From an uncultured Chloroflexia bacterium (lineage in GTDB: Bacteria; Chloroflexota; Limnocylindria; Limnocylindrales; CSP1-4), in NCBI GenBank assembly GCA_963763775.1, contig CAVXPZ010000003.1:480001-544000 (forward strand): a DNA stretch of 64,000 nucleotides, read 5' to 3'. Within the stretch, counting starts at the first letter, position 1; the number at the start of each line of letters is the position of its first letter. Position numbers and translations under genes: made by a program. The notes beneath the pieces were generated by a model. It was not told the origin of the DNA. It did no database searches and saw only the letters and a program-made list of their open reading frames with translations. This document shows, piece by piece, positions 31,901 to 50,461 of the stretch.

Positions 31901-31935
31901 TAGGTGGACGGGCGATCGCGTGCCACGATGGCGGC

Positions 31936-32985: not shown

Positions 32986-33062
32986 CACGGCGCCGCACGG
33001 TCGCGATCGTGGTCGCAGGCCTCCGAACCCCGGGGCACGCATCACCGAAGGGAGCACCCACC

Positions 33063-33689: not shown

Positions 33690-33911
33690 CTCCAGGAGGA
33701 TCCCGACGGCGGGGTCCGGTCGCGGCGAGGGCCGCATCGACCGGGCCCCGTCGTCGCACGTTCGGCCCTCGGACGGGTCCGCGACTTTAGGTGATGTCCG
33801 GTGGGGTCGTTGGGTCGATCGACCGATGCCCGGGCAGCCGCCCCAGGCGAGAGTCGTAGGCAACGGCCTCACCCCCGATGACGGCCGAAATCGACCAGGA
33901 GGGATCGAGAC

Positions 33912-34231: not shown

Positions 34232-34377
34232 GCTCGCCGCGGGCCGCGCTCGCTGAGGATCGCCTGGCGGCCGTCGAGCCGCGCCGGAACCTTTCGAGGC
34301 CGATCGTGGTGACCCACGGTCGGCCTCGTCGTCTGTTCGGCCGCCCGTCTCGTCAGGCGCCCGCCCGCGCGACGCGT

Positions 34378-34944: not shown

Positions 34945-35185
34945 CGATGGACCTCCTGCAAGGGACGGCAGGGTACCGCGGGAGCGATGTGGTGGGCGCG
35001 GTGTCGTCACCGGGGACCGAGGGGTACTAGCAGTAGCCGTTCTGACGACGCGTTCCTCGTGGACGGAGGCGAATCCGACGTCGGAACGTCGAGTTCGCTC
35101 GAGCACCACGCTGGAATATCCAAGGATCGGTCACTGATGGTACCCGGGCACGGGGGCACGACCTGAGCGACGCCGACGCTTCCGC

Positions 35186-35207
35186 TAAGCTGGTTGTGTG
35201 CACAACC
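35186..35207 (+). promoter_or_regulatory. -10 box with palindromic operator upstream of the DsbA/FrnE gene
   Basis: TAAGCT followed by GGTTGTG-TG-CACAACC. Confidence 0.5.
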
Positions 35208-35250
35208 ATGCGGCCCGACCCGGTCGATCCCGATCCCGACAGCGACGTTC

Positions 35251-35896
35251 GTGATCGTCGAGATCTGGTCCGACGTGGCTTGTCCGTGGTGCTACATCGG
35301 CAAACGGCGCTTCGAGCGCGCACTGGCCGACTTCGATGGCGCCGAGGACGTCGAGGTCACGTGGCGGAGCTACCAGCTCGACCCGACGATCCCGCGCGGC
35401 ATCGCGGACGCCGCATGACGAGTCGCTCGCCGCGAAGTTCGGCGCGACCCCCGACCAGATCCGGGTCATGAACGAGCGGGTCGTGACGCTCGCCGCCGAG
35501 GAAGGCCTCGAGTACCACTTCGAGCGCTACATCACGGTCAACACCTTCGACGCGCACCGGATGACGCACCTGGCGGCAGCGCATGGCCTCGGGGCGGCGA
35601 TGCACGAGCGGCTCTTCCGGGCGCAGTTCGTCGAGGGCGAGGTCCTCGACGACCCGGACACGCTCGTCCGTCTGGCGGGCGAGGTCGGCGTCCCCGCCGA
35701 CGAGGCTCGACGCGCGATCGAGACCGACGCGTTCGCCAGCGAGGTCGCCGAGGACATCGATGAGGCTCGGCGCATCGGCGTGAGCGGCGTCCCGTTCTAC
35801 GTCCTCGACCGCCGGTACGGGATCTCCGGCGCCCAGCCGACCGAGCTGTTCCTCGAGGCCCTTCGACAGGCCCGGGCGACCGCCATCATCCCGTGA
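35251..35896 (+). CDS. DsbA/FrnE-family dithiol oxidoreductase (frameshift at ~35412)
   Basis: EIWSDVACPWCYIG, NTFDAHR, GVSGVPF, SGAQP. Confidence 0.87.
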
Positions 35897-35994
35897 TGGA
35901 CGACTGGGCGACCTTCGACGACGCCCGGTCGGCGACGATCGCGCTCATCGACTGAGTCGGCCGACGCGGCCGAAGTCGCTGGATCGCCGGACCC

Positions 35995-36436
35995 TCAGCT
36001 CGCGGCTTGCTTCACCAGATGCCGCGATCCGCTCCTCGACCTCGGGGGTCAGCTCGAGCACGGCGTAGGCATTCGGCCACATACGGCCGTCGTCCAGCCG
36101 AGCGTCCGGCTGGAACCCGAGGGTCGCGTAGCGCACCTTGAACTTGGACGCCGGCTGGAAGAAGCAGATCGACTTGCCGTCCTTCGCGTAGGCGGGCATC
36201 CCGTACCAGGTCTTCGACGTCAGCTCCGGCGCGGCCGCCTTGACGATCTCGTGGATGCGTGCGGCCATGCTGCGGTCCGGCTCCGACAGCTCGGCGATCT
36301 TGGCGAGCACGTCGGCCTCGCCGGCCGCATCGTCGGCGCCGCGCTTCGCGTCCCGTTTGGCTTCCGCCGCGGCCTCCCGCATCGCGGCCTTCTCCTCGGC
36401 GGTCCAGATCTGGGTCTTCGCGGGCTTCGTTGCCAT
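35995..36436 (-). CDS. DUF1801/YdhG-like protein (frameshift near the 3' end)
   Basis: [20 protein letters not shown]...CFFQ...RYATLGF. Confidence 0.8.
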
Positions 36437-36542
36437 GGGTGGTTCCTCGCTTCCGGCAGTCGTGGTGACAACGATGCTAGTCGCCACTCGGCCCTCGGGC
36501 TTCTCGAAACGTGACCGAGTCGCCTGGCGCCGCCGTGGCAGA

Positions 36543-36927
36543 TCAGCTCGACATCGGCTCGGGCTGCCAGAGCTCGATCTTCGTGCCCTCCGGGTCGACG
36601 ATGTGCGCGAAGCGGCCGTTCGGCTGGTCAGGGAACACGGTCGCCTCCACGCCGTGCGTGGCGCAGCTGGCCAGGATGCCGTCCAGATCGTCGACGGCGA
36701 GGTTGAGCATGAAGTCCTTCGCCGATGGCTCGAAGTAGGTCGTGTCGGCCTCGAACGCGCTGAAGACCGTCCCGGCGCCCGGCTGGGCGGCCATCGCCTC
36801 CGGTCGGAAGACGACACCGCCCCAATCCTCGACCTCGAGGCCGAGGACATCGCGGTACCAGGCGATGAGGGCGGCCGGGTCCGTCGCCTTGAAGAACACG
36901 CCGCCGATCGCCGAGGACCCTGGCCAT
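36543..36927 (-). CDS. VOC/glyoxalase-family protein (frameshift at ~36910)
   Basis: MARVLG / GGVFFK...WYRDVLG...NLAVDDLD...[12 protein letters not shown]; AAGGAGG RBS. Confidence 0.82.
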
Positions 36928-36953
36928 CCGAACCTCCTTGACCTCGATGCTGT

Positions 36954-37783
36954 TCAGGCGACGCCGTCGCGGTCTCGCCGTCTGGCGAGGCCCTCGAGCT
37001 GCCCGGCGTGCACGTCGCTCACCCACTCCCAGCCGGGCGCGGCCGATGGCCCGATCCGCGGGTCGCTTGGGACCGTCGCGTCGCGCAACGCGCACACGTA
37101 CGCCCGATCCAGGTCGATCCGCGCTTGGAGCTGCCCAGCGTCGCCGATGGACCCGTGGCCCGGGACGAGCGACATCGACGTCGCCCGCCACGCCCTCGAG
37201 CAGTCGCAGCGCGGCGAGGTAGTCCTCGATCGGGTCAGTCGGCGCTCAGGTCGAGCATCGGGATCAGGACATCGGAGAGCATGTCGCCCGCGACGAGCAC
37301 CCGGCGCGCCTCGATCACCAGCGCCGCATGGCCGGGGGCGTGCGCTCGATGCTCGATGATCCGGACGAGCGGGCCATCCCACGGGATCCGTGCCGCCTCG
37401 GCGGGCAAGCCGGTGACGAGACCGAGCAGGTCCAGGGGGACGTCGTCGGCGATCTCCGGCGGCAGCTCCTCGGCCTCGCGGGCCTTCCAGTCCGGGTCCG
37501 ACATCTGATCGCGGACCGACGCCGCGCAGCGGGCGGTGGCGTACCGGGGGGCGACGCCGAGCCTGGCGTGCCAGAGCAGGTGATCCCAATGCGGATGCGT
37601 CGAGAAACCCGCCACGACGGTCTGGCCCGCATCGGCGAGGTCGTTCGCGAGGCAGTCCATCTCGGCGCCGGTCACGCCCGGGTCGATGAGCAACGTGCCG
37701 GCGCGGCCCTGCACGACCACGGCGTTGCTCTGGAGGAACTCGCTCTGGTGGACCAGCACGCCGTCCGCGACCTGCGTCAGCAC
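36954..37783 (-). CDS. MBL-fold metallo-hydrolase (frameshift at ~37230)
   Basis: LIDPG, THPHWDH, HAPGH, AGD, VPGHG. Confidence 0.82.
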
Positions 37784-37861
37784 GGGTGGCTCCTTCCGCT
37801 GGTGGTTGGCATCCGATCCACGTGCGGATGGTCGTCGCGGGCGCTACCCACGACGTCGGTG

Positions 37862-37960
37862 ATGGCGCGCCCGACAGGTGTTGGAGCGCGATCTGCAACC
37901 TACACCATCCCGATCGAGGGTCGCGATGAGTGGCTGGCCGCGGCGAGGCGCCTAGCGTGA
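37862..37960 (+). other. att-spanning peptide module, copy 1 (MARPTGVGARSATYTIPIEGRDEWLAAARRLA)
   Basis: Homologous to 43150-43248 with mostly synonymous differences. Confidence 0.7.
37863..37878 (-). repeat. att-like duplication of the tRNA-Arg 3' end (distal copy)
   Basis: TGGCGCGCCCGACAGG identical to 48118-48133 and 43151-43166. Confidence 0.9.
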
Positions 37961-38328
37961 GGCATCGCCCCGCCGTGTGCGCGACCGACCGGGAGGTCGT
38001 CGTCGTGGCCGCGGTCCTCGAGTCCGGGTCGGAGAAGGCGGCCGCCCATCGCCTCGGCCTGTCACATTCCACGGTCAAGCACCACCTGGCGAATGCGTGG
38101 TCGGAGGTCGGAACAGAGACGACGACGCAGCTCGTATGGATCCTGGTTCCTGGCCTGCCGGAACCGGAGGGCGGGAGTCGACGGAACGTGTCGCGGTCGG
38201 AATCGGGTGTCGCAATATGGAACGATGCCGCGCGACCTGCCCTCATAGTGTCGAATGCGGCCGCCGGCCGCGACACAGTGGGACATCGCAATGCAGCGCG
38301 ACCTCGTCCTCCGCGCGGCGACCGGTGA
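37957..38328 (+). CDS. Small LuxR-type HTH protein (3' end uncertain, possibly degenerate)
   Basis: TDREVVVV...SEKAAAHRLGLSHSTVKHHLANA; GTGA-coupled to the tail peptide. Confidence 0.6.
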   Translation: MRHRPAVCATDREVVVVAAVLESGSEKAAAHRLGLSHSTVKHHLANAWSEVGTETTTQLVWILVPGLPEPEGGSRRNVSRSESGVAIWNDAARPALIVSNAAAGRDTVGHRNAARPRPPRGDR

Positions 38329-38846
38329 CCACGACGCGTTCGCGTCGCTGGCGACCGGTGCCTACGAGCGGCTCCACCGAACCGCGCAGCTGATCCTCCG
38401 CCGCGAGGACCTTGCGTCGGACGCCGTCCAGGAGGCGCTCACCTCGGCGTGGCTGCACATCCGGGCCGTCCGTGACCCAGACCGCTTCGACGCCTGGCTC
38501 AACCGCCTGGTCGTGCGCGCCTGCTACGAGGAGCTCCGTCGAGCGAAGCGAAGGCCGATCCAGGTCCGCGTGGACTTGCTCGAGGGACCGGGGGTCGAGG
38601 ATTTCGACCGTGGCTCTCGCGGATCGGGACCAGCTGGAGCGCGGCTTCCAGCACGTCTCCGTCGACCATCGAGCGGTCCTCGTGGTCCACCACTACTTGG
38701 GACTGGCGGACGCTGATGCCGCGGTAGTCCTGGGCATCCCCATCGGCACCTACAAGTCCCGTCTCAATCGCGCCCACCTCTCGCTGCGCGCGGCCCTCGA
38801 GGCCGACGCCCGCGTGGCCGGGATCGGCCAGGAGTCCATCGCATGA
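38291..38846 (+). CDS. ECF sigma factor (frameshift at ~38605)
   Basis: GDHDAF, DAVQEA, FDAWL (region 2); LGIPIGTYKSRLNRA (region 4); GGAAC-N18-CTCA upstream. Confidence 0.87.
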
Positions 38847-40090
38847 CTGCCCAGAACGACCTCGACCGGGCCCTCGGCGCGTGGCTCCACGGGGACGCCA
38901 CGACCGCGCCACCGCCCGAGCCCCTGGCTCGAGCGATCGAGTCGACCCGCCACCTCCGCCCACGGCCCGCCCCCGTCGCGCGGATCGGCAGCTCCTGGGT
39001 CGGGTCGGGCGAGAGCAACCGCGTCCTCAGCGGTATCCGCGGCCTTCGGCCCGCTCTTCTCGTCGCGCTCGTCGCGCTGCTCGCCCTGGCACTCGTCGGC
39101 GGGGCCCTTCTGGTCGGGGGCCGGCTACTGCCTCGCCCGCCCGCGCCGCACGCGTACGCGGACCGGTTCGCGTCGTTGCCCGATCTGCCGACGCCGGTTG
39201 GCTCGCCGATCGTCGTCGAGCTCCAGGACGGCCGCGTCCTGGTCGTCGGGAGCATCTTCGGGCTGACGCCGTTCGTGTACGACCCGACGACGAGCACGTC
39301 GGTGGCGACCGGCCCGGTGCTGTCGGCGGACGGCATCCTCGGCAATGCGGTCCGCCTTCGCGACGGGCGCGTCCTCCTCACGGGGGACGGGGTCTCCCAA
39401 GTGTTCGACCCCGCGACGATGTCGTTCGCACCGACCGGGCCGATGGTGACGGCGCGCTCGTTCCCGATGCTCGCGACGCTGCCCGACGGACGGGTGCTCG
39501 TTGCCGGAGGCGTTCAGCCCGGGACCGACACGCGGATCCACTCGGCGGAGCTGTTCGACCCCAAGACGCTGACGTTCTCACCGACGGGCTCGATGGCCTA
39601 CGACGCCGGCGACCTCGTCACGTTGCCAGACGGCCGGGTCTTCGTCGCCTCCAGCCCCAACGCCGAGATCTACGACCCTCGGTCCGGGACGTTCGCCTTC
39701 GCCGGTGTCCTCCCGAACGGTGTCACGGGCGCGACCGCCCTCCCCGATGGCCGCGTCGTGCTCGTCGGGGTCTTGAGCGTCACGGGGATGCAGTCCAACG
39801 GCTTCGTCGGGGTCTGGGACCCGGCGGGATCGACGTACCGGGAGCTGTGGGGCGGATCTCAGTCGCATCCGCTCTGGAGCGCGAGCACCCTCGACGACGG
39901 CCGAGTCCTCGTGACCGGTGGGCGCCCAGCCGCCTGGGCCGGTGTCCTCGATCCGGCGACCGGGCAGATGAAGCCGGTCACGCCGCCAGCCTGGAGCCGG
40001 CCCACGGTCACGCGACTCTCCGATGGCAGGGTGCTGATCGTCGGCGGGATGGACGACGGCGCCGGATCGACCGTGCAGGTCTTCCAGTGA
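38843..40090 (+). CDS. Single-TM protein with Kelch/beta-propeller repeats, putative anti-sigma factor
   Basis: Repeated LxDGRVL(V)xGG...AE(L/I)(F/Y)DP units; ATGA-coupled to the ECF sigma. Confidence 0.8.
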   Translation: MTAQNDLDRALGAWLHGDATTAPPPEPLARAIESTRHLRPRPAPVARIGSSWVGSGESNRVLSGIRGLRPALLVALVALLALALVGGALLVGGRLLPRPPAPHAYADRFASLPDLPTPVGSPIVVELQDGRVLVVGSIFGLTPFVYDPTTSTSVATGPVLSADGILGNAVRLRDGRVLLTGDGVSQVFDPATMSFAPTGPMVTARSFPMLATLPDGRVLVAGGVQPGTDTRIHSAELFDPKTLTFSPTGSMAYDAGDLVTLPDGRVFVASSPNAEIYDPRSGTFAFAGVLPNGVTGATALPDGRVVLVGVLSVTGMQSNGFVGVWDPAGSTYRELWGGSQSHPLWSASTLDDGRVLVTGGRPAAWAGVLDPATGQMKPVTPPAWSRPTVTRLSDGRVLIVGGMDDGAGSTVQVFQ

Positions 40091-40148
40091 ACCTGCTCGG
40101 TCACTGTCGCGACTACGAGCGGATCGCCGCGGCCTCGCGGCTCCGCGC

Positions 40149-40325
40149 ATGAGGGACGGTCACTTGCGGGGCTCGCTGACCCGACCCGCAACGCAGTCCC
40201 AGATGGATGTGCTCGCGGCCTTCGTCGCTGCAGGAGGATCGGTCCAGGGCGCCGGCGAGCTCGTGGGCATTCAACCAGGCGGCCGTGCACAGACCCACGA
40301 CGCAACTGGCACTCGGCCGAGGTAG
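40149..40325 (+). pseudogene. Truncated copy of the small HTH gene at 43245
   Basis: MRDGHLRG...QMDVLAAFVAAGGSVQGAGELVGIQP versus MRDGYQRG...QMDVLAAYVAAGGSVHDAADLVGIRP; similarity ends before the recognition helix. Confidence 0.75.
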
Positions 40326-40353
40326 GAACGACAAGGCGCAGCTCGTACGTGGG

Positions 40354-40785
40354 TCAGTCGGAACGGTTTGTCTGCTTCGTCATCGCGTCCCTAACGCGAG
40401 CGGTGTCCACGAACTGCTCGAACCGGACGATGCGCCCGGCTCGCACGACGAAGTGATGGGCGACCCGGCATGCCAGAGTGTTGCCCGTGACACGGTGGGT
40501 CGCGGTATATCGAGCAAGAACGACGACGTCCTCTCCATCGACCACGTAGGTGTCGTCATGCGCGGTCCACTCGTCCCACTCCCGCCCAAGCGCTTCCATG
40601 ACGTTCGTGGTGACACCCTCCGGAGTCCGATACGTCCCGCCGAGCGGGAAGCCGGACATCTCGGTCCACTCCACGTCGGGTGCCAGGGTCTCCCGGAGCG
40701 CTGCCAGATCACCCGCGGCGGACGCGAGGTACTGCCGGCGGACGACGTCCGCGGGTGAGGATCCGTCGGCCTCGATCAGCCCCAC
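40354..40785 (-). CDS. SnoaL/NTF2-like protein
   Basis: LAPDVEWTEMSGFPLGGTY, IVRFEQFVDT. Confidence 0.85.
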   Translation of the reverse strand: MGLIEADGSSPADVVRRQYLASAAGDLAALRETLAPDVEWTEMSGFPLGGTYRTPEGVTTNVMEALGREWDEWTAHDDTYVVDGEDVVVLARYTATHRVTGNTLACRVAHHFVVRAGRIVRFEQFVDTARVRDAMTKQTNRSD

Positions 40786-41582
40786 GTCATCTCTCCCTTC
40801 GCCACCTTGGATCCAAGGCCGGCGGCGACCACCAGGCCGGCATTCGGGTAGGCGGCGATCAGCGCCGCCTCGAGCGCCGCACCGTCGCGCGACTCCGACA
40901 CGAGGGCTTCAAAGCTCTCGAGATACGCGCGGGTGTGGCTGATCGCCGTCGTGTCGGTGGGCGCGCCGGCCGCGCGGTGGCCGGCGACGACGAACGCCGG
41001 CGACAGCGCCAGCAGGTCCTCCAGTACGCGGATCCACTCGGCGCGGAGCTCGGTCGTCGCGGAATCAGCAGTCCAGACGTGCAGGCCCTCGAACAGGAGC
41101 ACCCCGCCGAAGAGCGAGCGGCTTCCCGGCTCCCAGAGGAACCACGCGCGATCGCCGAGCTGGTCGCTCCCGCGCCGGACCTGGATCGTGGTCCCGTCGA
41201 CCGTGAGGGTCGTCCCGCCGAGCTCCTCGATCTCGACGAGCCGTGTCGGCAGGTTGGCGCCGAGGTGCGCCCAGGCCTTCAGCTTTCCCTCGTAGCTGGC
41301 GCGGATATGGTCGATCACGTCGGCAGGGGCGACGAATCGGGCCTCGGGGAAGGCGTCGGCGATGACCTCGGCGCCGAAGTAGAAGTCCGGGTCGCCGGCG
41401 CTGATGACGACGGTGTGGAGCGTCCTGCCCGAGTCGAGGACGGCGGCTGCGATGCGGTGGCCGTCGGCGCGGGTGAAGGCGGCATCGACGACGAGGGCCT
41501 CGGTGTCACCGGCCACGAGGACGCTCGTCTTGTGGAGTGACGTCGGGGCGCTGTCGAGAATGGAATAGGTCAGTGCGGTCAT
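40776..41582 (-). CDS. MBL-fold protein (degenerate metal site)
   Basis: LVVDAAFT, ISAGDPDFYFG, LHVWTAD, VVAGH. Confidence 0.8.
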   Translation of the reverse strand: MTALTYSILDSAPTSLHKTSVLVAGDTEALVVDAAFTRADGHRIAAAVLDSGRTLHTVVISAGDPDFYFGAEVIADAFPEARFVAPADVIDHIRASYEGKLKAWAHLGANLPTRLVEIEELGGTTLTVDGTTIQVRRGSDQLGDRAWFLWEPGSRSLFGGVLLFEGLHVWTADSATTELRAEWIRVLEDLLALSPAFVVAGHRAAGAPTDTTAISHTRAYLESFEALVSESRDGAALEAALIAAYPNAGLVVAAGLGSKVAKGEMTWG

Positions 41583-41669
41583 GGTGTCCTTCACGGTGCA
41601 AGCGGCTGGAACGGCACGGTCAGCGTAAGACCGCAGGTCTTGTGGGTCACGGTCGGGACAGGGCGTACG

Positions 41670-42563
41670 ATGGTGAAAATGCGACAGACAGATCGACCCG
41701 GCATCCGCCCCGTCCAGTTCGCCTCGGGGCAGGAGGTCGTGGCCGGGATCGAGGTGATGACCCTGGCGACCATGCGTCGGCGCGCGGGCCTCTTGGAGTT
41801 CCGCGACCCTCAGCGCCTTGGGTTCGACCTCCTCATCCGAATCGACAGCGGCACGGCCGTCCACACGGTCGACCTCGTGGCCTACGACCTTGCCCCAGGC
41901 GACACGATGTGGATCCACGCGGGCCAGGTCCAGCAGTGGGGAGACATCGCCGCGATCGATGGGCCGGTGGTGCTGTTCACGCCCCAGGCTCTCGATGCGG
42001 ACACGCTCCTGCGGATCCGCGCCACGGGAATGGCGCTTCGAAGCGACTTTCCGATGGGATCTGCGGGGTCAGGCCAGGACCTCGCCTGGTCGTACTTGCG
42101 CCACTGTGCGTCGCTCGCCGCTGGGGTGCCGCAGGCCCTCGGGATCGCCCTCGTGGCCCGGTCGCTCGCGGCGCTGCTCTTGGAGCTAGTGGCTGGGGCG
42201 GTCGGCCCCGGAACGGCCCGTCGCCAACCCGCCGAGGACTTCCTCCGGCTGCGTGACGCGATCGAGGATGGCTTCACCACCGAGCACCGGGTCGCGGCGT
42301 ACGCGCGACGTCTCGGCTACTCGACCCGCACCGTCGACCGCCTCGCACGGGCCAACGCGGGCCTGACGGCGAAGGCCCTGATCGACGAGCGCGTGGTCCT
42401 CGAGGCGCAGCGGATGCTCGCTCACGGAGACGACTCGATCGCCGCGATCGGGGGTGCTCTGGGGTTCGACGATCCGTCCAACTTCTCGAAGTACTTCACC
42501 AAGCGTGTCGGCACCACGCCGGCGGCCTCCCGCCGGCGCGCCAGGGGAGAAGAGGCGACCTGA
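41670..42563 (+). CDS. AraC-family transcriptional regulator
   Basis: Cupin N-terminus; VAAYARRLGYSTRT, LGFDDPSNFSKYF; start approximate. Confidence 0.9.
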   Translation: MVKMRQTDRPGIRPVQFASGQEVVAGIEVMTLATMRRRAGLLEFRDPQRLGFDLLIRIDSGTAVHTVDLVAYDLAPGDTMWIHAGQVQQWGDIAAIDGPVVLFTPQALDADTLLRIRATGMALRSDFPMGSAGSGQDLAWSYLRHCASLAAGVPQALGIALVARSLAALLLELVAGAVGPGTARRQPAEDFLRLRDAIEDGFTTEHRVAAYARRLGYSTRTVDRLARANAGLTAKALIDERVVLEAQRMLAHGDDSIAAIGGALGFDDPSNFSKYFTKRVGTTPAASRRRARGEEAT

Positions 42564-42584
42564 TCCGCGTGGGCTGCGCGAGGC

Positions 42585-42998
42585 TCAAGCCCCGATGCGA
42601 ACGTTGAGTTGGAGCCCGAGGGCAACCCCCAGGACGATCCAGCCAAGTGCGCCGCCGACGAGCAGCAGGATCCGGGCAAGGTTCCGGTCGGTCGGCGAAG
42701 CATCGGCCGCGATCTGCTCCGAGAAGACGGCGAGGGCGGCGACCAGAAAGGCGATGATGCCGCCGACGAACGCGCCCGCGACGAACATCGCCAGGACGCC
42801 ACCGGTCACGGCGACGACGCGGACGAACCGCGTGGAGCGTGACGCGGTCTGGCCGTGACGCTTCTCGACGTCGGCTGTGCCGATGACGATCCCGGTTGCG
42901 ATGGCGAACGGCCACGCCCACAGCGTGAACGGGGCGAGCACTCCGATCGCGACTGCGACGACCAGGTGTCGTCCGATCTGGAATCCCGTGGTCTCCAT
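42585..42998 (-). CDS. Hypothetical membrane protein
   Basis: Several hydrophobic helices; no family recognised. Confidence 0.55.
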   Translation of the reverse strand: METTGFQIGRHLVVAVAIGVLAPFTLWAWPFAIATGIVIGTADVEKRHGQTASRSTRFVRVVAVTGGVLAMFVAGAFVGGIIAFLVAALAVFSEQIAADASPTDRNLARILLLVGGALGWIVLGVALGLQLNVRIGA

Positions 42999-43149
42999 TG
43001 GGCGCCTCGGCCGGACGGGTCCGCCGAACGGCGGACGGCATTGCCATGATGACGCGGCGGGCGCCCGGTCGTGACTTGCCTGCTCGACGGTGTTCGCTTT
43101 GCTGGCGAGGTCAGGGACATCCCAATGAAGCGAACGAATGCAAGTGTTC

Positions 43150-43248
43150 GTGGCGCGCCCGACAGGTGTTGGACGCGCGATTTCAACCTACACCATCCCG
43201 ATCGAGGGGCACGACGAGTGGCTGGCCGCTGCTAGGCGGCTGGCATGA
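43150..43248 (+). other. att-spanning peptide module, copy 2 (VARPTGVGRAISTYTIPIEGHDEWLAAARRLA)
   Basis: Homologous to 37862-37960; stop overlaps the ATG of the HTH gene (ATGA). Confidence 0.7.
43151..43166 (-). repeat. att-like duplication of the tRNA-Arg 3' end (middle copy)
   Basis: TGGCGCGCCCGACAGG. Confidence 0.9.
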
Positions 43249-43493
43249 GGGACGGGTACCAGCGCGGGGTGCTTCCGCCGCAGGCGACGCGGCGCCAGAT
43301 GGACGTGCTTGCCGCCTACGTCGCCGCCGGCGGGTCGGTCCACGACGCGGCCGATCTCGTGGGTATCAGGCCCAGCACCGTCAAGCGGCACCTCGCCGAC
43401 CTACGAGCGCGGTCGGGACTGACGACCGAGCAGCTGATCTATTCGGGCCGCGCCCTTGGTTGGCTCGTCGTCCCGAGCCTGGAGCCAGCGTGA
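43245..43493 (+). CDS. Small LuxR/sigma-region-4-type HTH protein
   Basis: TRRQMDVL...AADLVGIRPSTVKRHLADLRARSG. Confidence 0.75.
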   Translation: MRDGYQRGVLPPQATRRQMDVLAAYVAAGGSVHDAADLVGIRPSTVKRHLADLRARSGLTTEQLIYSGRALGWLVVPSLEPA

Positions 43494-43585
43494 TCTCTTG
43501 GATGCAGGCTGAGCCCCCGCGCGCGACCCCGAGTGCCCATCGCTCGCTCAAGCCGGACTATGCGCCAACCACTCTCGCTCCGCAG

Positions 43586-44293
43586 TCAGGCCGTGCCGAT
43601 GGGATCGGCACGGTCGGGCGACGCCCGGAGGCTGTCCAGACCGGCGAGGATCAGATCGAGACCGAAGTCGAACTCGCTGGCGAAGTCGTAGCCGGCCTTG
43701 CCCACGTGCTCGGCAACGGACTCGGCGAGGTAGGGATAGTCGTCAGCGGGGAACTGGCTGAGGATCTCGATCGCCAACTTGTCGACCTGGTCCGTGCTTT
43801 CGAAGGGCAGGGTCTGCTCTTGCAGCGCGAAGCCGAAGATGAAGCTGTCGAGCAGGGTGAAGGCGTGAACGGCCATCGCGACGGAGAAGCCAGCCTGCCG
43901 CAACGCCCCTATCACCATGTCGTGGTATCGCATGTTGCCCGGGCCTGGATGGACGCGGGACTGGATCACCCCCAGCGCCCAGCGGTGACGCGCGAGCACT
44001 TCGCGGATCGAGTTGGCTTGCTGACGCATCGCCCCTTTCCAGTCTGACCCTCCGGCGGTGACGTCGATCTCCTCGTACATCACGTCGACCATCGCGTCGA
44101 GCAGATCGTCCTTGTTCGCGAAGTGGTTGTAGAGCGCCATGGGGTATACCCCCAGCTCCTGGGCGACGTTCCGCATGCTGAGCGACTCGATCCCGCCTTC
44201 ATCAGCGAGCTTGATGGCCGTTCGGAGCACTCGCTGCCGGCTGAGTGGGACTCGTCGTCTGGTCCTCGATCGTTGCTTGACAGACATTTGCAT
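43586..44293 (-). CDS. TetR-family regulator (TetR_C type)
   Basis: LSRQRVL...LSMRNVAQELGVYPMALYNHFANKDDL; FDFGLDLIL. Confidence 0.92.
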   Translation of the reverse strand: MQMSVKQRSRTRRRVPLSRQRVLRTAIKLADEGGIESLSMRNVAQELGVYPMALYNHFANKDDLLDAMVDVMYEEIDVTAGGSDWKGAMRQQANSIREVLARHRWALGVIQSRVHPGPGNMRYHDMVIGALRQAGFSVAMAVHAFTLLDSFIFGFALQEQTLPFESTDQVDKLAIEILSQFPADDYPYLAESVAEHVGKAGYDFASEFDFGLDLILAGLDSLRASPDRADPIGTA

Positions 44294-44312
44294 CCCTCTC
44301 GGCACCTGGGTC

Positions 44313-44370
44313 TTGACGTATGTACGCTGTACATCTAATGTACGCCGTATTGGCGATGTACGCCGTACAT
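44313..44370. promoter_or_regulatory. Three tandem palindromic operators (18-bp period) with TTGACG -35
   Basis: ATGTACGCTGTACAT (44320), ATGTACGCCGTATTG (44338), ATGTACGCCGTACAT (44356). Confidence 0.8.
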
Positions 44371-44385
44371 TAGCAGGAGACCACC

Positions 44386-45414
44386 ATGAAGGCAATCGTT
44401 CAACCAACCTATGGCTCACCCGATGACCTGCAGCTGCGCGACATCGACCAGCCCACGATCGGCGACCACGACGTGCTGGTGCGCGTGCATGCCGCGTCGG
44501 TCAACACCGCCGACCGGCTCATCCTGCGCGGCCGCCCCTATCTGATGCGCGCCGCGGGCTCCGGACTCGGCTTTAGCCCGCGTCGACCCCAGTTCGCCGT
44601 CGCGGGCACGGACCTCGCCGGTCGTGTGGCGGCGGTAGGCAGTCTGGTGACCGCCTTCCGCCCCGGCGACGAGGTGTACGGGAGCGTCCCCGGCGCGATC
44701 GCGGAGTACGTCGCGGCGCCGGACACCGCCCTGGCGGCCAAGCCGTCGAGCCTCAGCTTCCAACAGGCCGCCGCGATGCCGCTGGCCGCGCTCACCGCAC
44801 TCCAGGGGCTTCGCGATGCCGGACAGGTCCAGCCCGGGCAGCGGGTTCTGATCAATGGGGCCTCGGGCGGCGTCGGCACCTATGCGGTGCAGATCGCCAA
44901 GGTCCTGGGCGCCGAGGTGACCGCGGTGACCAGCGGCCCGAACGTCGAGATGGTTCGATCACTCGGCGCCGACCACGTCATCGACTACACCAGCGAGGAC
45001 TTCACGGAGTCAGCCAGTCGGTATGACGTCATCCTGGACCTTGTGGGCAACCACTCACTGTCGGCTCGACGACGCGCGCTGACCGCGACGGGCACGCTGT
45101 TGCTGTCATACGTCGGTACCAACCGCTGGGTGGGGCCGTTCGGTCACATCCTGGCTGCCGTGGTGCTGACGCGGTTCACGAGCCACAGGATCGTCTCGTT
45201 CACGACCGCTCCGAGCAGTGCCGACCTGCTCGTCCTTGCGCAGCTGACAGACGACGGAAAGATCGTGCCGGTCATCGACCGGACCTACCGCCTCGACCAA
45301 GCAGCCGAGGCGATCCGCTACCTGGAACTCGGACGTGCCCGGGGCAAGGTCATCATCAGCATCAGCGACCGCGGCGCGCTGGCCGCGCTGACGCCGGCGA
45401 GTGTGGCGTCGTGA
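44386..45414 (+). CDS. NAD(P)-dependent MDR oxidoreductase (quinone reductase-like)
   Basis: VRVHAASVN, GTDLAG, INGASGGVG, GADHVIDY, GKVII. Confidence 0.9.
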   Translation: MKAIVQPTYGSPDDLQLRDIDQPTIGDHDVLVRVHAASVNTADRLILRGRPYLMRAAGSGLGFSPRRPQFAVAGTDLAGRVAAVGSLVTAFRPGDEVYGSVPGAIAEYVAAPDTALAAKPSSLSFQQAAAMPLAALTALQGLRDAGQVQPGQRVLINGASGGVGTYAVQIAKVLGAEVTAVTSGPNVEMVRSLGADHVIDYTSEDFTESASRYDVILDLVGNHSLSARRRALTATGTLLLSYVGTNRWVGPFGHILAAVVLTRFTSHRIVSFTTAPSSADLLVLAQLTDDGKIVPVIDRTYRLDQAAEAIRYLELGRARGKVIISISDRGALAALTPASVAS

Positions 45415-46067
45415 CGGCGCCAGCGATGCCAGTGGGGCCGTACGCGGCTCGTCTGACCATTGACTACCCCGAACGCCTTGATCGGGTCACGACCTTCTTT
45501 CGCCTGATCTGGGTCATACCGATCGCCATCGTGCTCGGAGTGATCACGGGGAGCGGGACCCAGATGATGGTCACCGCAGCCGGTGAGCAGATCGTCGGAG
45601 CCGGCGGTGGACTGCTCGCTGGCTTGGCTTTCGCCACGGCGCTGATGATCGTCATCCGCATGCGCTACCCGCGCTGGTGGTTCGACTTCGCACGGGAGCT
45701 GACCCGCTTCGGCGCCCGCGTCGGTGCCTACGTGGCCCTGCTCACGGACCGATATCCGTCCACTGTCGAGGAGCAATCGGTGCACCTCGAGATCGAGTAT
45801 CCAGAGGTCGATCGCGACCTGAACCGCTGGCTTCCACTGGTCAAGTGGTTCCTGGCGATCCCCCATTACGTCGCGCTGATCGTCCTGATCATCGGAGCGG
45901 CCCTCGCCATCGTGATCGCCTGGTTCGCGATCCTCATGACCGGGCGTTATCCCCAGCCGCTCTTCGACTACGTGGTCGGCGTCGGGCGGTGGAGCCTGCG
46001 CGTGAACGCCTACGCGTTCCTGCTCGTGACCGACCGCTATCCCCCCTTCAGCCTGAAAGCAGGGTAG
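45411..46067 (+). CDS. DUF4389-type membrane protein
   Basis: Internal duplication RYPxxxFD...R...AY..LLTDRYP. Confidence 0.8.
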   Translation: MTAPAMPVGPYAARLTIDYPERLDRVTTFFRLIWVIPIAIVLGVITGSGTQMMVTAAGEQIVGAGGGLLAGLAFATALMIVIRMRYPRWWFDFARELTRFGARVGAYVALLTDRYPSTVEEQSVHLEIEYPEVDRDLNRWLPLVKWFLAIPHYVALIVLIIGAALAIVIAWFAILMTGRYPQPLFDYVVGVGRWSLRVNAYAFLLVTDRYPPFSLKAG

Positions 46068-46069
46068 TC

Positions 46070-47227
46070 ATGCGAATCCTCCGAGAGCTCTCGCGGCGCA
46101 AGCTGCGCACGAGCCTGACCATCACCGGCATCACCATCGGCATCTGGGCACTCGTGGTGTTCAGTTCGCTGGCCAACCAGATCAACGGCCTCGTCGGCAT
46201 GGGCAGCGAATACTTCGCCGACAAGATCGTCGTCACCGACGGCGTGGCCTTCGGCTCGTCGCCGATGCGCCTCGACGACGTCGAGATCATCGCCGGCCTC
46301 GACGGCGTCGGTGCCGTCCAGCCCAAGGTCGAGATCCCGTGGGACCCCGATCCCGCTATCGGGTTCGGCGCGCCGGACTTCCTGGTCGGGACCATCCCGG
46401 GCGCCGACGCCGGGTTCGAGACGTTCACACCCGAGCTGGCCACGGGACGCCAGCTCATCGCCGAGGACACCGGCAACGTCGTGGTCCTGGGGTCGACCAT
46501 CGCCCGCAAGTACGGCGTCGTCGCCGGCGGGACGGTCGACATCCGAGGCGAGTCCTTCGAGGTCCTTGGGACCCTGCAACCCACCCTCAGCACGCCCGAC
46601 ACGAACGGCTTCATCCCGCTCTCGACGGCCCAGGCGCTGTACCTGGGCGACCTGCCCCCACTCGTCGCCGAGTCGCTCCAGGCGGACGAGCTGGCCAACC
46701 AGATCGTCGTCTTCCCCGAAGTCGGTGCCGACCCGACGACGGTGGCCGCGGCGATCGAGGCCGCGGTCGAGAACAGCGCGACCATGACCGGCGCCGAGTT
46801 CTCCAAGACGGTCGGCGCCACGACCGTGATCTTCAACGCGATCATCATCGGGGTGGCCGCCATCAGCCTCATCGTGGGCGGCCTGTCGGTGATCAACACG
46901 ATGGCCATGAGCGTGGCCGAGCGGACCCGCGAGATCGGCATCCGGCGGGCCATCGGCGGCTCCCGGCGACGCATCGTCCGCGAGCTCGTCGCCGAGGCCG
47001 GGGTCATCGGGCTGCTGGGCGGCCTGATCGGGCTCGGCCTGGGCGCTGCGGTCGTCGTCCTGGTCAACGAGGCCGGCCGATCGAGCGGCACCGTCCTCTT
47101 CGACCTCACCGCACAGACCGCGGCGTTCGCGGTCGGCTTCAGCACGATCCTCGGGATGGTGGCCGGGATCATCCCGGCCTGGACTGCCGCACGGCTCGAC
47201 CCGGTGTCGGCCCTGCGCTACGAATGA
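46070..47227 (+). CDS. MacB/FtsX-family ABC permease
   Basis: RKLRTSLT, NTMAMSVAERTREIGIRRAIG, LDPVSALRYE. Confidence 0.9.
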   Translation: MRILRELSRRKLRTSLTITGITIGIWALVVFSSLANQINGLVGMGSEYFADKIVVTDGVAFGSSPMRLDDVEIIAGLDGVGAVQPKVEIPWDPDPAIGFGAPDFLVGTIPGADAGFETFTPELATGRQLIAEDTGNVVVLGSTIARKYGVVAGGTVDIRGESFEVLGTLQPTLSTPDTNGFIPLSTAQALYLGDLPPLVAESLQADELANQIVVFPEVGADPTTVAAAIEAAVENSATMTGAEFSKTVGATTVIFNAIIIGVAAISLIVGGLSVINTMAMSVAERTREIGIRRAIGGSRRRIVRELVAEAGVIGLLGGLIGLGLGAAVVVLVNEAGRSSGTVLFDLTAQTAAFAVGFSTILGMVAGIIPAWTAARLDPVSALRYE

Positions 47228-47256
47228 CCAACGACCGAACGACGAAGGAGCGAACG

Positions 47257-47979
47257 ATGAACCTGATCGAAGCGACCGACCTGCGCAAGACCTACCGGCT
47301 GTCGCGCCGGACCAGCATCGATGCCCTGCAGGGTGTTGACGTCAGCATCGCCGCCGGCGAGATGGTGGCGATCATGGGGCCGTCAGGCTCCGGCAAGAGC
47401 ACGCTCATGCACCTGCTCGGGCTGCTCCACGCGCCGGATACCGACGACGGCCCGGCCCCGACCCTGCGCATCGATGGGGTCGATGCGACGACCCTCTCGG
47501 ACGGCGAGCGAACGTCCATCCGGGCTCGATCGATGGGCTTCGTGTTCCAGTCCTTCAACCTGGTCCCGACGCTCACCGCCGAGGAGAACGTGGCCCTCGC
47601 CGCCGAGTATGCCGGGACGTCCGGTTCGGCAGCCCGTGTGGCTGCGCGCGCCTCGCTGGCGTCGGTCGGCCTTGCCGAGCGAGCGGGGCACCGGCCGATG
47701 GAGTTGTCAGGGGGCGAGCAGCAGCGCGTGGCCATCGCCCGTGCCCTCGTGAACGACCCGAAGCTGATCCTCGGTGATGAGCCGACGGGCAACCTGGATT
47801 CATCCCGGGCCGCGGAAGTCCTGGGCCTGCTCCGTCGCTTCAACCGTGAGCGCGGGCAGACCGTGCTCATCGTCACGCACGACCAGGAGGTTGGCGCCGC
47901 CTGCGACCGGATCATCCGGATGCGTGACGGGCGGATCATCGCCGACGAGCGCGTGGCGGACCTGCAGGTTGCCGCATGA
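47257..47979 (+). CDS. MacB/LolD-family ABC ATP-binding protein
   Basis: GPSGSGKST, GFVFQSFNL, LSGGEQQR, DEPTGNLD. Confidence 0.92.
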   Translation: MNLIEATDLRKTYRLSRRTSIDALQGVDVSIAAGEMVAIMGPSGSGKSTLMHLLGLLHAPDTDDGPAPTLRIDGVDATTLSDGERTSIRARSMGFVFQSFNLVPTLTAEENVALAAEYAGTSGSAARVAARASLASVGLAERAGHRPMELSGGEQQRVAIARALVNDPKLILGDEPTGNLDSSRAAEVLGLLRRFNRERGQTVLIVTHDQEVGAACDRIIRMRDGRIIADERVADLQVAA

Positions 47980-48182
47980 CGGCCGGAACGATGCGCGATC
48001 TGATGCACGCCATCTACGACCGGATCACGGTCGCCGGCCCGGTGATCGTGGGTGTCCGGCTGACCCAGGCGGCCTACGCGCACGGATTGGCGCTGGCTCT
48101 GCCCGAAAGGGTTGAAATGGCGCGCCCGACAGGACTCGAACCTGCGACCTTTGGGTCCGGAACCCAACGCTCTATCCACTGA
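47976..48182 (+). pseudogene. Short ORF reading through att into the tRNA antisense; probable C-terminal remnant of the element recombinase
   Basis: DLMHAIYDRITVAGP...LALALPERVE-MARPTG-LEPATFGSGTQRSIH; in frame with the att-spanning MARPTG; recombinase identity is inferred, not shown. Confidence 0.5.
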
Positions 48183-48193
48183 GCTACAGGCGC
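48118..48193 (-). tRNA. tRNA-Arg(CCG)
   Basis: GCGCCTG acceptor stem, TAGCTCAGTGGATAGAGC D-arm, TTGGG-TTCCGGA-CCCAA anticodon arm, GGTTCGAGTCC T-arm, encoded CCA. Confidence 0.97.
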
Positions 48194-48245
48194 GCGAGCG
48201 CCAAGGATACGACGCCGGCAGGCGATCCGGCCCTGATCACCCGGA

Positions 48246-48424
48246 CAAAAGCCGAGGCCGGCTCCCGAAGGAACCGGCCTCGATGCTGTCCCGGTGAAGG
48301 AGTCCGCTTGAACGGACACTTCTGCCACGCGTCAAAGGCATCTATCACGTCGGCTGCACCGACTACCCTGACCCTACCTACCCATGACCTTGACGCTGGG
48401 GCAGCTTGGCTGACTGAGCAGCAT
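48246..48424 (-). ncRNA. Candidate ~180-nt small RNA (6S-like size, family not identified)
   Basis: TTGGAA-17-TAGGAT promoter (48457-48429); ends pair (ATGCTG/CAGCAT); internal stem CTGCC..GCGTCAAGG/CCTTTGACGC..GGCAG; intrinsic terminator; no convincing ORF. Confidence 0.65.
48247..48282 (-). terminator. Intrinsic terminator
   Basis: CGAGGCCGGTTCC-TTCG-GGAGCCGGCCTCG followed by GCTTTTGT. Confidence 0.8.
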
Positions 48425-48558
48425 CGATATCCTATCTCGTCAGGGGCCTTTTTCCAAGGGTTTTGTCAGGTTCGTCGGTATAAATTCCTTAACCTTTGTC
48501 GCGTCACACGTCGCGGTGACGACGTGCGCCGGTCATTGACGGCTCGGTCGGGCCCGGC

Positions 48559-49053
48559 TCAGGCCTCGTCGTGGATGGTCACCGACACCATCGCGACCGG
48601 CTCGTTCGGCAGGTCCCGGCCGTCGCGCGGGGCCGACACGATCTTGTCGACCACGTCGAGCCCCTTGGTGACCTGACCGAAGAGCGTGTAGTTCTTCGGC
48701 AGCTTGCCGGTCAGGTCGTCGGTGCAGATGAAGAACTGGCTGCCGTTGGTGTTCGGGCCCGCGTTGGCCATGGCCAGCGCGCCGCGAACGTAGTCGCCCT
48801 GGACCGGCTCGTCGGCGAACTTGTAGCCCGGGCCACCGGTGCCGACCCGGCTGCGCTCGAGCGCCGACTTCTTGCCGAACTGGCCGTCGCCGCCCTGGAT
48901 GACGAACCCGGGGATGACGCGATGGAAGATCACGTCGTCGTAGTAGCCCTTGCGCGCGAGGTCCGCGAAGTTCGCGGCCGCCTTCGGCGCGCTCTCGTCG
49001 TAGAGCTGGACCTCGATGTCGCCGATCTCCGTGGCGATGGTGGCCGTGGTCAT
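48559..49053 (-). CDS. Cyclophilin-type peptidyl-prolyl isomerase (cytoplasmic)
   Basis: FHRVIPGFVIQGGD, LAMANAGPNTNGSQFFI, YTLFGQV. Confidence 0.95.
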   Translation of the reverse strand: MTTATIATEIGDIEVQLYDESAPKAAANFADLARKGYYDDVIFHRVIPGFVIQGGDGQFGKKSALERSRVGTGGPGYKFADEPVQGDYVRGALAMANAGPNTNGSQFFICTDDLTGKLPKNYTLFGQVTKGLDVVDKIVSAPRDGRDLPNEPVAMVSVTIHDEA

Positions 49054-49110
49054 GGGCGTGACTCCTTCTTCGACTCGATGGCTTCGGGCTCGGGACCGCC
49101 TGGCGGCCGA

Positions 49111-49763
49111 TCACGGGTTGGTGACGGTCACCTTGTTCATGATGACCGGCTGGGCGGGGTTCTCCTGACCGGCCGCGGCCGCGGTGATCGCGTCGACCGT
49201 CTCCATGCCGGATGTGACCTCGCCGATGATCTGGTAGGTGTTGTACGACGAGAGGGCGCCGGCCGCGGCATCGTCGCTGACGATGAAGAACTGCGACCCG
49301 ACGGAGTCCGGCGCCGACGTCCGGGCCATCGCGACCGTGCCGCGGTGGTACTTGCCCGTGACCGGCTCGTCCTTGATCGTGTAGCCGGGGCCGCCCGTGC
49401 CGGTGCCGGTGGGGTCGCCGCCCTGGATGACGAACTGCTCGACCACGCGATGGAAGCCCACGCCGTCGTAGTAGCCGCACTCGGCGAGGGCGACGAAGTT
49501 GCCGACCGCGATCGGCGACAGGTCGGCGCTCAGCTTCATCGTGATGTCGCCCTTGTCCGTGGAGATCGTGACGGTCCGCGACTCGCCGGCCGGCAGGGCC
49601 GGGGGCTGGCTCGTCGGGCAGGCTCCGCCGCCCGAAGCTGCGGCGCTCGCGCCCGCACTCGCCGACGAGCTCCGCTCGACGAGGAGCACGCGGTCACCAG
49701 GAGCGCGGCCATCGCCGCGACGAGCAGGGATCCCGCCACGCGGCGGGTCGGGAACGTGGTCAT
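49111..49763 (-). CDS. Cyclophilin-type PPIase, lipoprotein (frameshift at ~49678)
   Basis: Lipobox LVTAC in frame 1; FHRVVEQFVIQGGDP, VAMART, GSQFFI in frame 2. Confidence 0.85.
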
Positions 49764-50461
49764 GCGGCGGCCTCCAGGGCTGCGGGATAGTCGATCGCCC
49801 CCGAGAGGAGCGCCTCCCCGAGGATGACGCCGGCGACACCGGCGTCTCGGACTCGCCGGAGCGCGTCGAGATCTCGGACGCCACCGGCCATCAGGATGTC
49901 CGCATCGTACGACCGAACGAGCGATCGCACCCGGTCGAGGTCCGGATCGGCGCCGCCATGCGAGAGGACGAACCGCCCGACACCGGCCCCGACCAGCTCG
50001 GCGACCAGCGCGTCGACGGTCGGCGGGACCGCCCGTCGCCACGGGAAGGCCGCCAGTCGCTCGGGCCGCGGGTCCAGGCCGACGGCCAGCCAGTCGCCGG
50101 CGACCTCCAGGCACGCCCGCAGGTCATCCGGGCGGTCGGCGATGTCCGTGGTCAGCACGACGCGCGTCGCGCCGGCGGCGAACACGAGCCGGATCCCGTC
50201 GGCGGACTCGAGGCCGCCGGCCACCTGGAGCGGGACGGCGATCCGGGCTGCGATGGCCCCGATGACGTCGGTCGCCACGGGCGACCCGGCCCGGGCGCCG
50301 GCGAAGTCGACCAGATGGATGAGCCTGGCGCCCATCGCGACGAAGGTCTCCGCGATCCGGTCCGGGCGGTCCGTGGGTGCCCCGACGCCCGATGCCGCGC
50401 CGGGCCAGTACACCGTCCGCGACCGACCGTCCTCGAGGTCGATGGCCGGGATGACCAGCAC
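49760..50461 (-). CDS. HisA/HisF-family TIM-barrel protein (divergent)
   Basis: VIPAIDLEDG, IHLVD, LQVAGG, MAGGV, GVILGEAL. Confidence 0.8.
   Translation of the reverse strand: MLVIPAIDLEDGRSRTVYWPGAASGVGAPTDRPDRIAETFVAMGARLIHLVDFAGARAGSPVATDVIGAIAARIAVPLQVAGGLESADGIRLVFAAGATRVVLTTDIADRPDDLRACLEVAGDWLAVGLDPRPERLAAFPWRRAVPPTVDALVAELVGAGVGRFVLSHGGADPDLDRVRSLVRSYDADILMAGGVRDLDALRRVRDAGVAGVILGEALLSGAIDYPAALEAAA

Follow-up and report, generated by a model that had tools for sequence, protein, structure and literature searches.

A probable decayed tandem array of serine-recombinase cassettes at a tRNA-Arg(CCG) gene in Chloroflexota, and the likely mobilisation in trans of its integrase-less unit

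To judge by design, the closest known system to the elements described here is that of the ssrA genomic islands (ssrA-GIs) of Dehalococcoides, which belongs to the same phylum. As the passages on integration in McMurdie et al. 2011 (PMC3146451) describe them, these islands carry their own CcrB-type large serine recombinase (LSR), stand in tandem behind a small-RNA gene and are bounded by a direct repeat of about 20 bp of the ssrA 3' end. In the same passages the recombinase gene always overlaps the attachment (att) site at its 3' end and its read-through end is divergent; the authors suggest that the gene may be complete only on the circle or beside another island, and 15 islands that lack an integration module are interpreted there as cis-mobilizable (PMC3146451). 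Here, we analysed a stretch of 64,000 nucleotides (the window) on contig C3 of the assembly of an uncultured Chloroflexia bacterium (G000; 3.30 Mb, 87% complete), in which copies of the 3' end of a tRNA-Arg(CCG) gene mark off two units, unit 1 (37863-43150) and unit 2 (43151-48133). In our judgement this region is probably a decayed tandem array of element-borne LSR cassettes, and its non-autonomous unit 2 was most likely mobilised in trans. The LSR of this element family is called Int below, and G and L numbers denote the genomes and loci that were compared, G175 being the genome of another species (85% complete).

Both systems have a serine integrase gene that overlaps att, tandem islands with direct repeats, and members without an integration module. 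As far as the passages cited describe the ssrA-GIs, the two differ in target, which is ssrA (tmRNA) there and tRNA-Arg(CCG) here, and in module, which comprises six genes including a second small serine recombinase, DsiA, in ssrA-GIs and Int plus one GerE-like helix-turn-helix (HTH) gene here. No DsiA-like second recombinase was found: G000 lacks any Resolvase domain match, the units of relatives each gave a single Int-like match (Int as the query), and the Pfam matches of 44 cargo open reading frames (ORFs) include no second resolvase. Moreover, the far-side tail of the recombinase gene is conserved here with a coding pattern, whereas the corresponding end is reported there as divergent; the units here are smaller (1.3-8.7 kb) than the ssrA-GIs as described. 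Beyond what those passages report, the present locus offers direct evidence for a spreading integrase-less unit.

Serine-recombinase cassettes also stand in tandem at the 3' end of a conserved gene, with short direct repeats, in the staphylococcal cassette chromosome (SCC; CcrAB or CcrC at rlmH/orfX), and some SCC members lack ccr and depend on a recombinase acting in trans. The SCC target is a protein gene, the recombinases are usually two, and their gene is not split by attP; here, by contrast, the target is a tRNA gene, int is split by attP, and Int matches the CcrB model weakly. In the accretion of cis-mobilizable elements and integrative and conjugative elements (CIME/ICE) of Streptococcus thermophilus, said to have been described by Pavlovic et al. 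in 2004, att-flanked elements without recombination genes reportedly persist in tandem and are mobilised by the recombinase of a neighbour. That system relies on a tyrosine recombinase and conjugative helpers; the concept is alike, but no conjugation genes were seen here. The Int of myxophage Mx8 is a phage tyrosine recombinase with tRNA-Asp as its target. According to a review, attP lies within int, and integration gives int a new 3' end and the enzyme altered properties (PMC6070905). The likeness, on that account, is the attP in the int coding sequence; the difference is that the enzyme here is a serine recombinase and belongs to small elements with cargo. Tycheposons of Prochlorococcus are presented, in the parts of the preprint on their integration, as cargo elements at tRNA genes with neighbours parted only by a partial tRNA, in islands that hold fragmented integrases and extra partial tRNAs; 910 of the 937 use tyrosine recombinases, and the integrase gene is not described in those parts as split (bioRxiv 10.1101/2020.12.28.424599). 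Compared with that description, the stacking at tRNA genes is alike, one member here (L043) holding PrimPol and AAA_25 genes, whereas host phylum and habitat differ. Our literature search, which did not extend to supplementary files, found no account of this element family in Limnocylindrales and, Dehalococcoides apart, no serine integrase with attP inside its own gene.

When the whole window was searched, the 16-mer TGGCGCGCCCGACAGG (the core) was found as an exact match on the + strand at 37863, 43151 and 48118, where about 0.0006 exact matches would be expected from base composition, and no fourth copy was present in the window even with up to 2 mismatches allowed. The core is the reverse complement of the 3' end of the tRNA-Arg(CCG) gene. 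The features around the cores are as follows; HTH and cargo calls here and below are Pfam profile matches on window ORFs.

37863..37878, + strand: core copy 1, exact match, with a P'-type arm next to it
37862..37960, + strand: tail ORF 1, 6 core-encoded and 26 tail codons, displaced LSR gene end
37957..38325, + strand: HTH1, GerE/LuxR-like (Pfam GerE 1.4e-4, HTH_1 1.7e-5, both below cut-off)
40112..40283, + strand: core-less remnant, in which a tail-frame end is followed by the initial 45 codons of an HTH2-type gene
43133..43150, + strand: native-type attB left arm, ending in CAAGTGTTCG; the same 10 nt adjoin the core at unoccupied tRNA-Arg genes
43151..43166, + strand: core copy 2, left end of unit 2, a B-P' type junction
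43150..43247, + strand: tail ORF 2, displaced LSR gene end
43245..43493, + strand: HTH2, GerE/LuxR-like, 82 aa (Pfam, alignment), start in ATGA overlap with the tail stop
47976..48133, + strand: LSR stub, the last ~50 codons before the probable crossover (P arm); the frame goes on to 48182
48118..48193, - strand: tRNA-Arg(CCG), called by ARAGORN; core copy 3 is its last 16 nt

About 100 bp after the cores at 37863 and 43151 are 89% identical to each other and hold 32-codon frames (MARPTGVGARSATYTIPIEGRDEWLAAARRLA and VARPTGVGRAISTYTIPIEGHDEWLAAARRLA, respectively), whose stops overlap the start of a small HTH gene, as GTGA in HTH1 and ATGA in HTH2. HTH1 is 123 aa long, against 83-88 aa in relatives. 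The original prediction, made from the sequence of the window, had named three exact 16-mers at the tRNA 3' end and a repeated module of att site, 32-aa peptide and small HTH gene; the window search and ARAGORN confirmed the former and the ~100-bp identity the latter, and the data support its view of the repeats as att-type duplicates of the tRNA 3' end that bound tandem mobile units.

The third core is crossed by a frame of 68 aa (47976-48182), which overlaps the stop of an ABC ATPase gene, runs into the tRNA complement and is in the same frame as the two 32-codon ORFs. This frame shows 73-94% identity to the C-terminal ends of open frames of ~500-660 aa in relatives. Compared with the Int of L019, only Int residues 438-499 were matched in the window (85% identity), and two ORFs of 499-500 aa in relatives end at the tRNA, beside the same tandem cyclophilin genes. 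The Int proteins of relatives matched Pfam Resolvase (PF00239) at 7.6e-12 and 3.2e-10 and the Recombinase domain (PF07508) weakly (E 0.003-0.005, below cut-off), while the L019 Int matched the PHROG 95 integrase at 3.8e-40 over residues 11-456. R21-E22-S23 is invariant in 17 of 17 aligned Ints, S23 being the serine in RES, and the cysteines C292, C294 and C317 are likewise invariant in the aligned Ints. These comparisons indicate that the Int family consists of large serine recombinases with a resolvase-type catalytic domain. Int as a Ccr orthologue was ruled out by the score of the L019 Int against the NCBIfam CcrB model (9.7e-7, 27.8 bits), far below the 900-bit cut-off. A fold model of full-length Int with its native tail (mean pLDDT 48, pTM 0.33) was too poor for the tail to be interpreted. 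Elsewhere in G000, a weak match to the Int C-terminal end (C4:7262-7413, locus L014; 49% identity, one TAA) lies beside tRNA-Arg(GCG), perhaps left by a related element that had used this other tRNA-Arg.

Tyrosine-recombinase matches (PF00589, Phage_integrase) number six in G000, all on C1 and none on C3. A tyrosine-recombinase island was rejected on this ground, together with the serine-recombinase nature of the element-borne enzyme. The same matches bear on the integron-like platform favoured in the original prediction, in which a resident recombinase would capture promoterless cassettes at a fixed site. Small regulator-plus-effector cassettes do follow one another behind a fixed site, but the tyrosine-recombinase matches all lie away from C3, the recombinase is a serine enzyme borne by the elements themselves, and the cassettes carry their own regulators and genes in both orientations. 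Such a platform is thus highly improbable: what is found is not a resident integrase with attI/attC logic but an element-borne LSR whose gene appears to be split by integration. As for the claim that a recombinase is absent, it held for an intact one in the window, and no serine-recombinase domain occurs in the assembly, but the ~50-codon stub adjoining the tRNA had been overlooked.

For a map of the family, Int, tail, HTH, tRNA and core were placed in 79 loci, which were gathered by Int similarity, so that counts among them are biased towards occupied sites. The hosts of related loci are Chloroflexota, mostly Candidatus Limnocylindrales, from soil and groundwater. A tRNA junction was present in 54 of the 79 loci, a full-length single-piece Int match adjoining the tRNA in 21, two or more cores in 12, at least one tail in 20 and at least one HTH match in 27. 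Core-to-core distances range from 1.3 to 8.7 kb, and the parts repeatedly appear in the order core, tail, HTH, cargo, Int, core. Such units commonly form tandem arrays in Limnocylindrales. Where two units meet inside an array, the Int frame continues across the core and into the tail, with uninterrupted ORFs of 512 aa in L058 and 515 aa in L056. In the alignment of Int C-terminal ends, two kinds part directly after ARPTG, one with the native tail and one with the tRNA-encoded end FEPATFGSGGRRSI(H/R).

The conserved tail of 26 residues has the consensus VGRA..TY.IPIEGRDEWLAAARRLA, and a variant with four extra residues retains PIEG..W. Over tail codons 15-32 of 19 distinct tails, the summed entropy was 4.89, 5.18 and 14.39 at positions 1, 2 and 3, which is a pattern and not a test, as the sequences are related to one another and include remnants. 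The tail thus appears to be coding sequence that varies mainly at third positions. Of 29 tails, 23 end in a stop codon that overlaps the start of an HTH gene, as ATGA or GTGA, and the HTH proteins are of two types, which align as stand-alone GerE/LuxR-like domains. As these alignments indicate, the "32-aa peptide" is the displaced C-terminal tail of an LSR gene that spans attP. The expectation in the original prediction that the peptide is the C-terminus of a recombinase intact elsewhere was borne out, in that such tails end the full-length Int ORFs of L056 and L058.

Elements in G033, G052, G131 and G086 showed no exact copy of the 16-mer at their far end. At the far end of the ~8-kb element of G033 (L035:11340-11390), an inverted tail fragment (..PIEG..) and a core-like piece precede a broken HTH gene, which hints at inversion by the same recombinase.

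The attP arms at internal junctions are imperfect inverted copies of each other over ~23 bp, centred on the GG at the end of the 16-mer, with AGGTTG at about -23..-18 on both sides and, in the consensus, GCGCGCCC(G/A)ACA beside GG on both sides; in L133 the inner palindrome is perfect. The attB arms differ from the attP arms. In attP sites of phiC31/Bxb1-type LSRs, a dyad surrounds a non-palindromic central dinucleotide. Because the dyad centred on GG matches this expected layout, we infer that crossover takes place at GG (window 48132-48133). The 14 bp left of GG are common to attP and attB because the element arm must restore the tRNA 3' end.

In four genomes, the motif ..ATAGAACAAGTGTTCG lies directly on an intact tRNA-Arg gene, in one of them with a single change. 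No tail, HTH or Int match was found within 1.5 kb at these four sites, nor in 20 kb of a fifth genome (G160), so unoccupied sites exist; the left flanks of the four contain almost no clear ORFs. Identical gene content in all relatives, which the original prediction named as a point that would count against it, is not what we found, since the content at the tRNA differs among relatives and none of the five loci checked for an unoccupied site showed a tail, HTH or Int match. The ten bases left of the core at 43151 (43141-43150) are those of the native arm of unoccupied sites, and for this reason the junction at 43151 looks like the product of integration into a virgin site.

We propose the following mechanism. 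The region would be the tRNA-proximal part of a variable island that was built from small integrative elements of one family, a complete element carrying an Int of ~500 aa, one small HTH gene of GerE-like type and a little cargo. The attP site would lie inside the 3' end of int, and on the circle or at a tandem junction int would span attP and end in the conserved tail. Int would catalyse recombination of attP with attB at GG in tRNA-Arg(CCG). Upon integration, the P arm of the element would rebuild the tRNA 3' end, int would be left beside the tRNA with ~15 tRNA-antisense codons as its new end, and the tail together with the HTH gene would be moved to its opposite end; production of the complete Int, and of the HTH protein coupled to it, would then be limited to the circle or a tandem junction. 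In the window, every int has been lost save the stub of ~50 codons at the tRNA, and unit 2, with both arms kept, would have been excised and integrated by the Int of a related element. Of this scheme, the anatomy, the homologies, the junction types, the copies with their identities and the unoccupied sites are observed, whereas the crossover point, any function of the tail swap, the part played by the HTH gene and movement in trans are inferred. The HTH protein might control directionality, or it might be a regulator that is expressed once the element has been excised. A further idea, tentative and on balance doubtful, is that integration acts as a built-in integrase switch, with tailed Int and HTH protein coming only from the circle or tandem and the integrated, tRNA-tailed enzyme differing in activity or stability.

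The case for movement rests on the copies of unit 2. The unit retains both arms near the family consensus (P' tail 43151-43250, P stub 47976-48133), and the Pfam matches of all its ORFs include no recombinase or transfer genes of its own, only residues 438-499 of Int being present. In G175, two copies stand in tandem: window 43151-48133 is 99.2% identical, core to core, to L135:3903-8881, and window 42578-48210 is 98.8% identical to the second copy (L135:8979-14610). The latter alignment takes in gene X, a hydrophobic-protein gene left of the core that accompanies unit 2 in G175 with 94% aa identity. The flanks right of the tRNA in G000 and G175 are 76% identical. A second G000 copy at C3:1-4912 is 99.0% identical over 4913 bp, in a different context: cupin and SnoaL genes lie before it, as do a degenerate spaced tail and, at C3:6714-6729, one more core, which adjoins a 971-aa AAA/TPR/LuxR regulator. 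All unit 2 copies have the same ~50-codon stub, and Int was therefore lost before the spread.

Contig C3 begins inside a core, and in the unit 2 copy located there the MacB/ABC genes are interrupted as if by frameshifts close to the contig end, so that assembly errors are possible. These features could also be taken to mean that the repeats are artefacts of a metagenome-assembled genome; yet the same architecture recurs in dozens of assemblies made independently of one another, and also in contigs from four public runs, which makes this explanation barely credible.

Public metagenomes were searched for words of window 42500-48300 in the 24 runs listed, mostly soil, and contigs of four runs from four studies were compared with window 36000-50000. 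At least half of the sampled words were present in 21 of the 24 runs, from about 15 studies. Contigs start exactly at 43151 in three of the four runs compared, one contig ends at 48134, and one contig of 4592 nt shows 16 differences from the window. The summed contig depth was 12-50 over bins 43005-47674 versus 0-5.7 over 37401-43004, each value adding up all organisms of a run. Unit 2 occurs far more often than the neighbouring DNA of G000. Overall, these comparisons indicate that unit 2 is a discrete integrase-less element that moved recently, and that it likely spread in trans.

Near-identical copies could also arise if unit 2 were no longer site-specifically mobile and owed its spread to homologous recombination following DNA uptake, or to unequal crossing-over at the tail/HTH region and the stub, the cores then marking old events. 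The sequence that G000 and G175 have in common extends beyond the cores to gene X and the attB arm, the conserved ~100-250 bp at each core offer homology, and no LSR was found in G000 or G175, all of which would suit such a history. Against this, the first G175 copy matches the window exactly core to core with a different left neighbour, metagenome contigs break at core edges in three of four runs, and the flanks of the two species, at only ~76% identity, are a poor substrate for exchange; spread by homology is thus unlikely. The frameshifted sigma factor, the truncated HTH, the missing cores and int genes and the lack of a helper recombinase in the assembly might equally be read as signs that the whole array is a fixed fossil with an inert unit 2, in which case the G175 identity would reflect one recent transfer of a chromosome segment. 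This we hold to be quite unlikely, as four copies with 98.8-99.2% identity lie in two genomes in at least three different left contexts, and near-identical sequence is present in runs of about 15 studies at a depth well above that of the G000 flanks.

Several observations nevertheless weigh against mobilisation of unit 2 in trans within a tandem array of LSR cassettes. No serine-recombinase (Resolvase) domain was found in G000 (87% complete) and no full Int in G175 (85% complete), and so no helper is in view in the genomes that hold unit 2. No circular joint of 48133 to 43151 appeared among the contig joints listed, which neither supports nor refutes excision because contigs break at repeats. 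The block shared with G175 runs 572 bp past the left core, through gene X and the native-type attB arm, a poor fit with strictly core-bounded transfer. Native-type left arms also occur inside arrays, at window 43141-43150, at 9541-9550 of L135 (G175, reoriented) and at about 13553-13569 of L067, which is at odds with simple serial insertion of attP into attB. To our knowledge, LSRs of the phiC31 or Bxb1 kind do not recombine attP with attL or attR, so that tandem arrays may have grown by homologous recombination, composite excision or relaxed site choice. Most internal Int copies in the relatives are frameshifted or truncated, and the choice of the 79 loci and the pooling of organisms in contig depth, both mentioned above, count on the same side.

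The remaining features of the array are listed below, from left to right.

37796..37862, + strand: possible decayed 3' end of an older LSR gene (P arm), by weak protein similarity to the Int C-terminal end
38291..38846, + strand: extracytoplasmic function (ECF) sigma factor, frameshifted, with region 2 in the frame of 38291 and region 4 in 38412-38846
38843..40090, + strand: Kelch-repeat protein (Pfam Kelch_6 2.8e-12; GC content at third codon positions, GC3, 0.90)
40354..40785, - strand: SnoaL-like protein (Pfam SnoaL_2 2.8e-15)
40776..41918, - strand: metallo-beta-lactamase (MBL)-fold protein (Pfam Lactamase_B 2.5e-5)
41640..42563, + strand: AraC-family regulator (Pfam HTH_18 5e-21)
42585..42998, - strand: gene X, 137-aa hydrophobic protein, no Pfam match; GC3 0.85, coding-type
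43586..44419, - strand: TetR-family regulator, unit 2 (Pfam TetR_C_1 2.9e-24)
44386..45414, + strand: medium-chain dehydrogenase/reductase (MDR), zinc-type, unit 2 (Pfam ADH_zinc_N_2 4.2e-28)
45411..46067, + strand: DUF4389 protein, unit 2 (Pfam 6.5e-20)
46064..47227, start approximate, + strand: MacB-type FtsX permease, unit 2 (MacB_PCD 3.6e-18, FtsX 3e-17, in ORF 45677-47227)
47224..47979, start approximate, + strand: ABC ATPase, unit 2 (ABC_tran 1.1e-28, residues 330-483 of ORF 46339-47979)

The cargo named in the original prediction (ECF sigma, Kelch, SnoaL, MBL, AraC, TetR, MDR, DUF4389 and MacB-type ABC) was thus recovered by Pfam. The frameshift of the sigma factor gene, near 38600, may make it a pseudogene or be a long-read indel error. 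For gene X, the frame 42588-43047(-) was first taken; it is arginine-rich and non-coding, and the coding frame is 42585-42998(-). A promoter scan of 37600-48300 returned 0 sigma-70-like sites. The cargo of relatives is alike, with sigma factors, LuxR/MalT and MarR regulators, dehydrogenases, hydrolases and ABC transporters. A larger member of ~11 kb (L043:300-11454) has, besides its PrimPol and AAA_25 genes, a PD-(D/E)XK nuclease, an Lnt-like CN hydrolase and a nucleotidyltransferase of the Pfam family Adenyl_transf, a gene content by which some family members may replicate after excision.

Unit 1 has a different make-up from unit 2. The core-less remnant at 40112-40283 contains a 124-nt repeat of 43243-43366 at 73% identity, and its protein shows 64% aa identity to HTH2 residues 1-45. 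Because of this third copy of a tail end and HTH start, unit 1 must be composite, made up of what is left of three or more older units. Accordingly, of the two ~5 kb units set out in the original prediction, unit 2 stands as one discrete element, whereas unit 1 is composite and the units are unequal; that the units are decayed or non-autonomous is supported, the int genes being lost but for the stub.

The first core at 37863, proposed as the outer edge of the island, probably is not. To its left, 37796-37862 can be aligned with the Int C-terminal end (PLVVGIRST..ALPTTSV against PEIVGVRLT..ALALPEKVA, a score inflated by the core-encoded MARPTG), which is suggestive of an LSR gene remnant left of the first core. 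Synteny with G160 stops at about window 26167, and the genes of 26167-37800 show no synteny within the genus. This segment is of accessory type, with an ABC-2 transporter, a CAAX protease, a histidine kinase and two response regulators, and also CMD, DsbA, DUF1801 and an MBL-fold protein; it could represent an older part of the island that has decayed completely, and the island probably reaches left of 37863. On the right, the tRNA is flanked by two tandem cyclophilin-type peptidyl-prolyl isomerase genes (48533-49884; internal direct repeats of 72-84%), and this pair is kept beside tRNA-Arg in relatives as a stable flank.

These findings define, from sequence alone, a compact integrase system for an abundant uncultured soil lineage, with attB in tRNA-Arg(CCG), an attP dyad of ~46 bp, a likely crossover at GG and an identified enzyme family. 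They turn the open remark on Dehalococcoides, that the integrase may be complete only on the circle, into a testable case, and short-site serine integrases are of practical interest as genome-engineering tools. The 5-kb integrase-less cassette, near-identical in two species and in the soils of many studies, is an example of how accessory genes travel in Chloroflexota. If the switch proposed above were true, it would provide directionality or copy control for minimal elements without a classical excisionase, and would explain stub-plus-tail cassettes that parasitise full elements and spread across soil Limnocylindrales.

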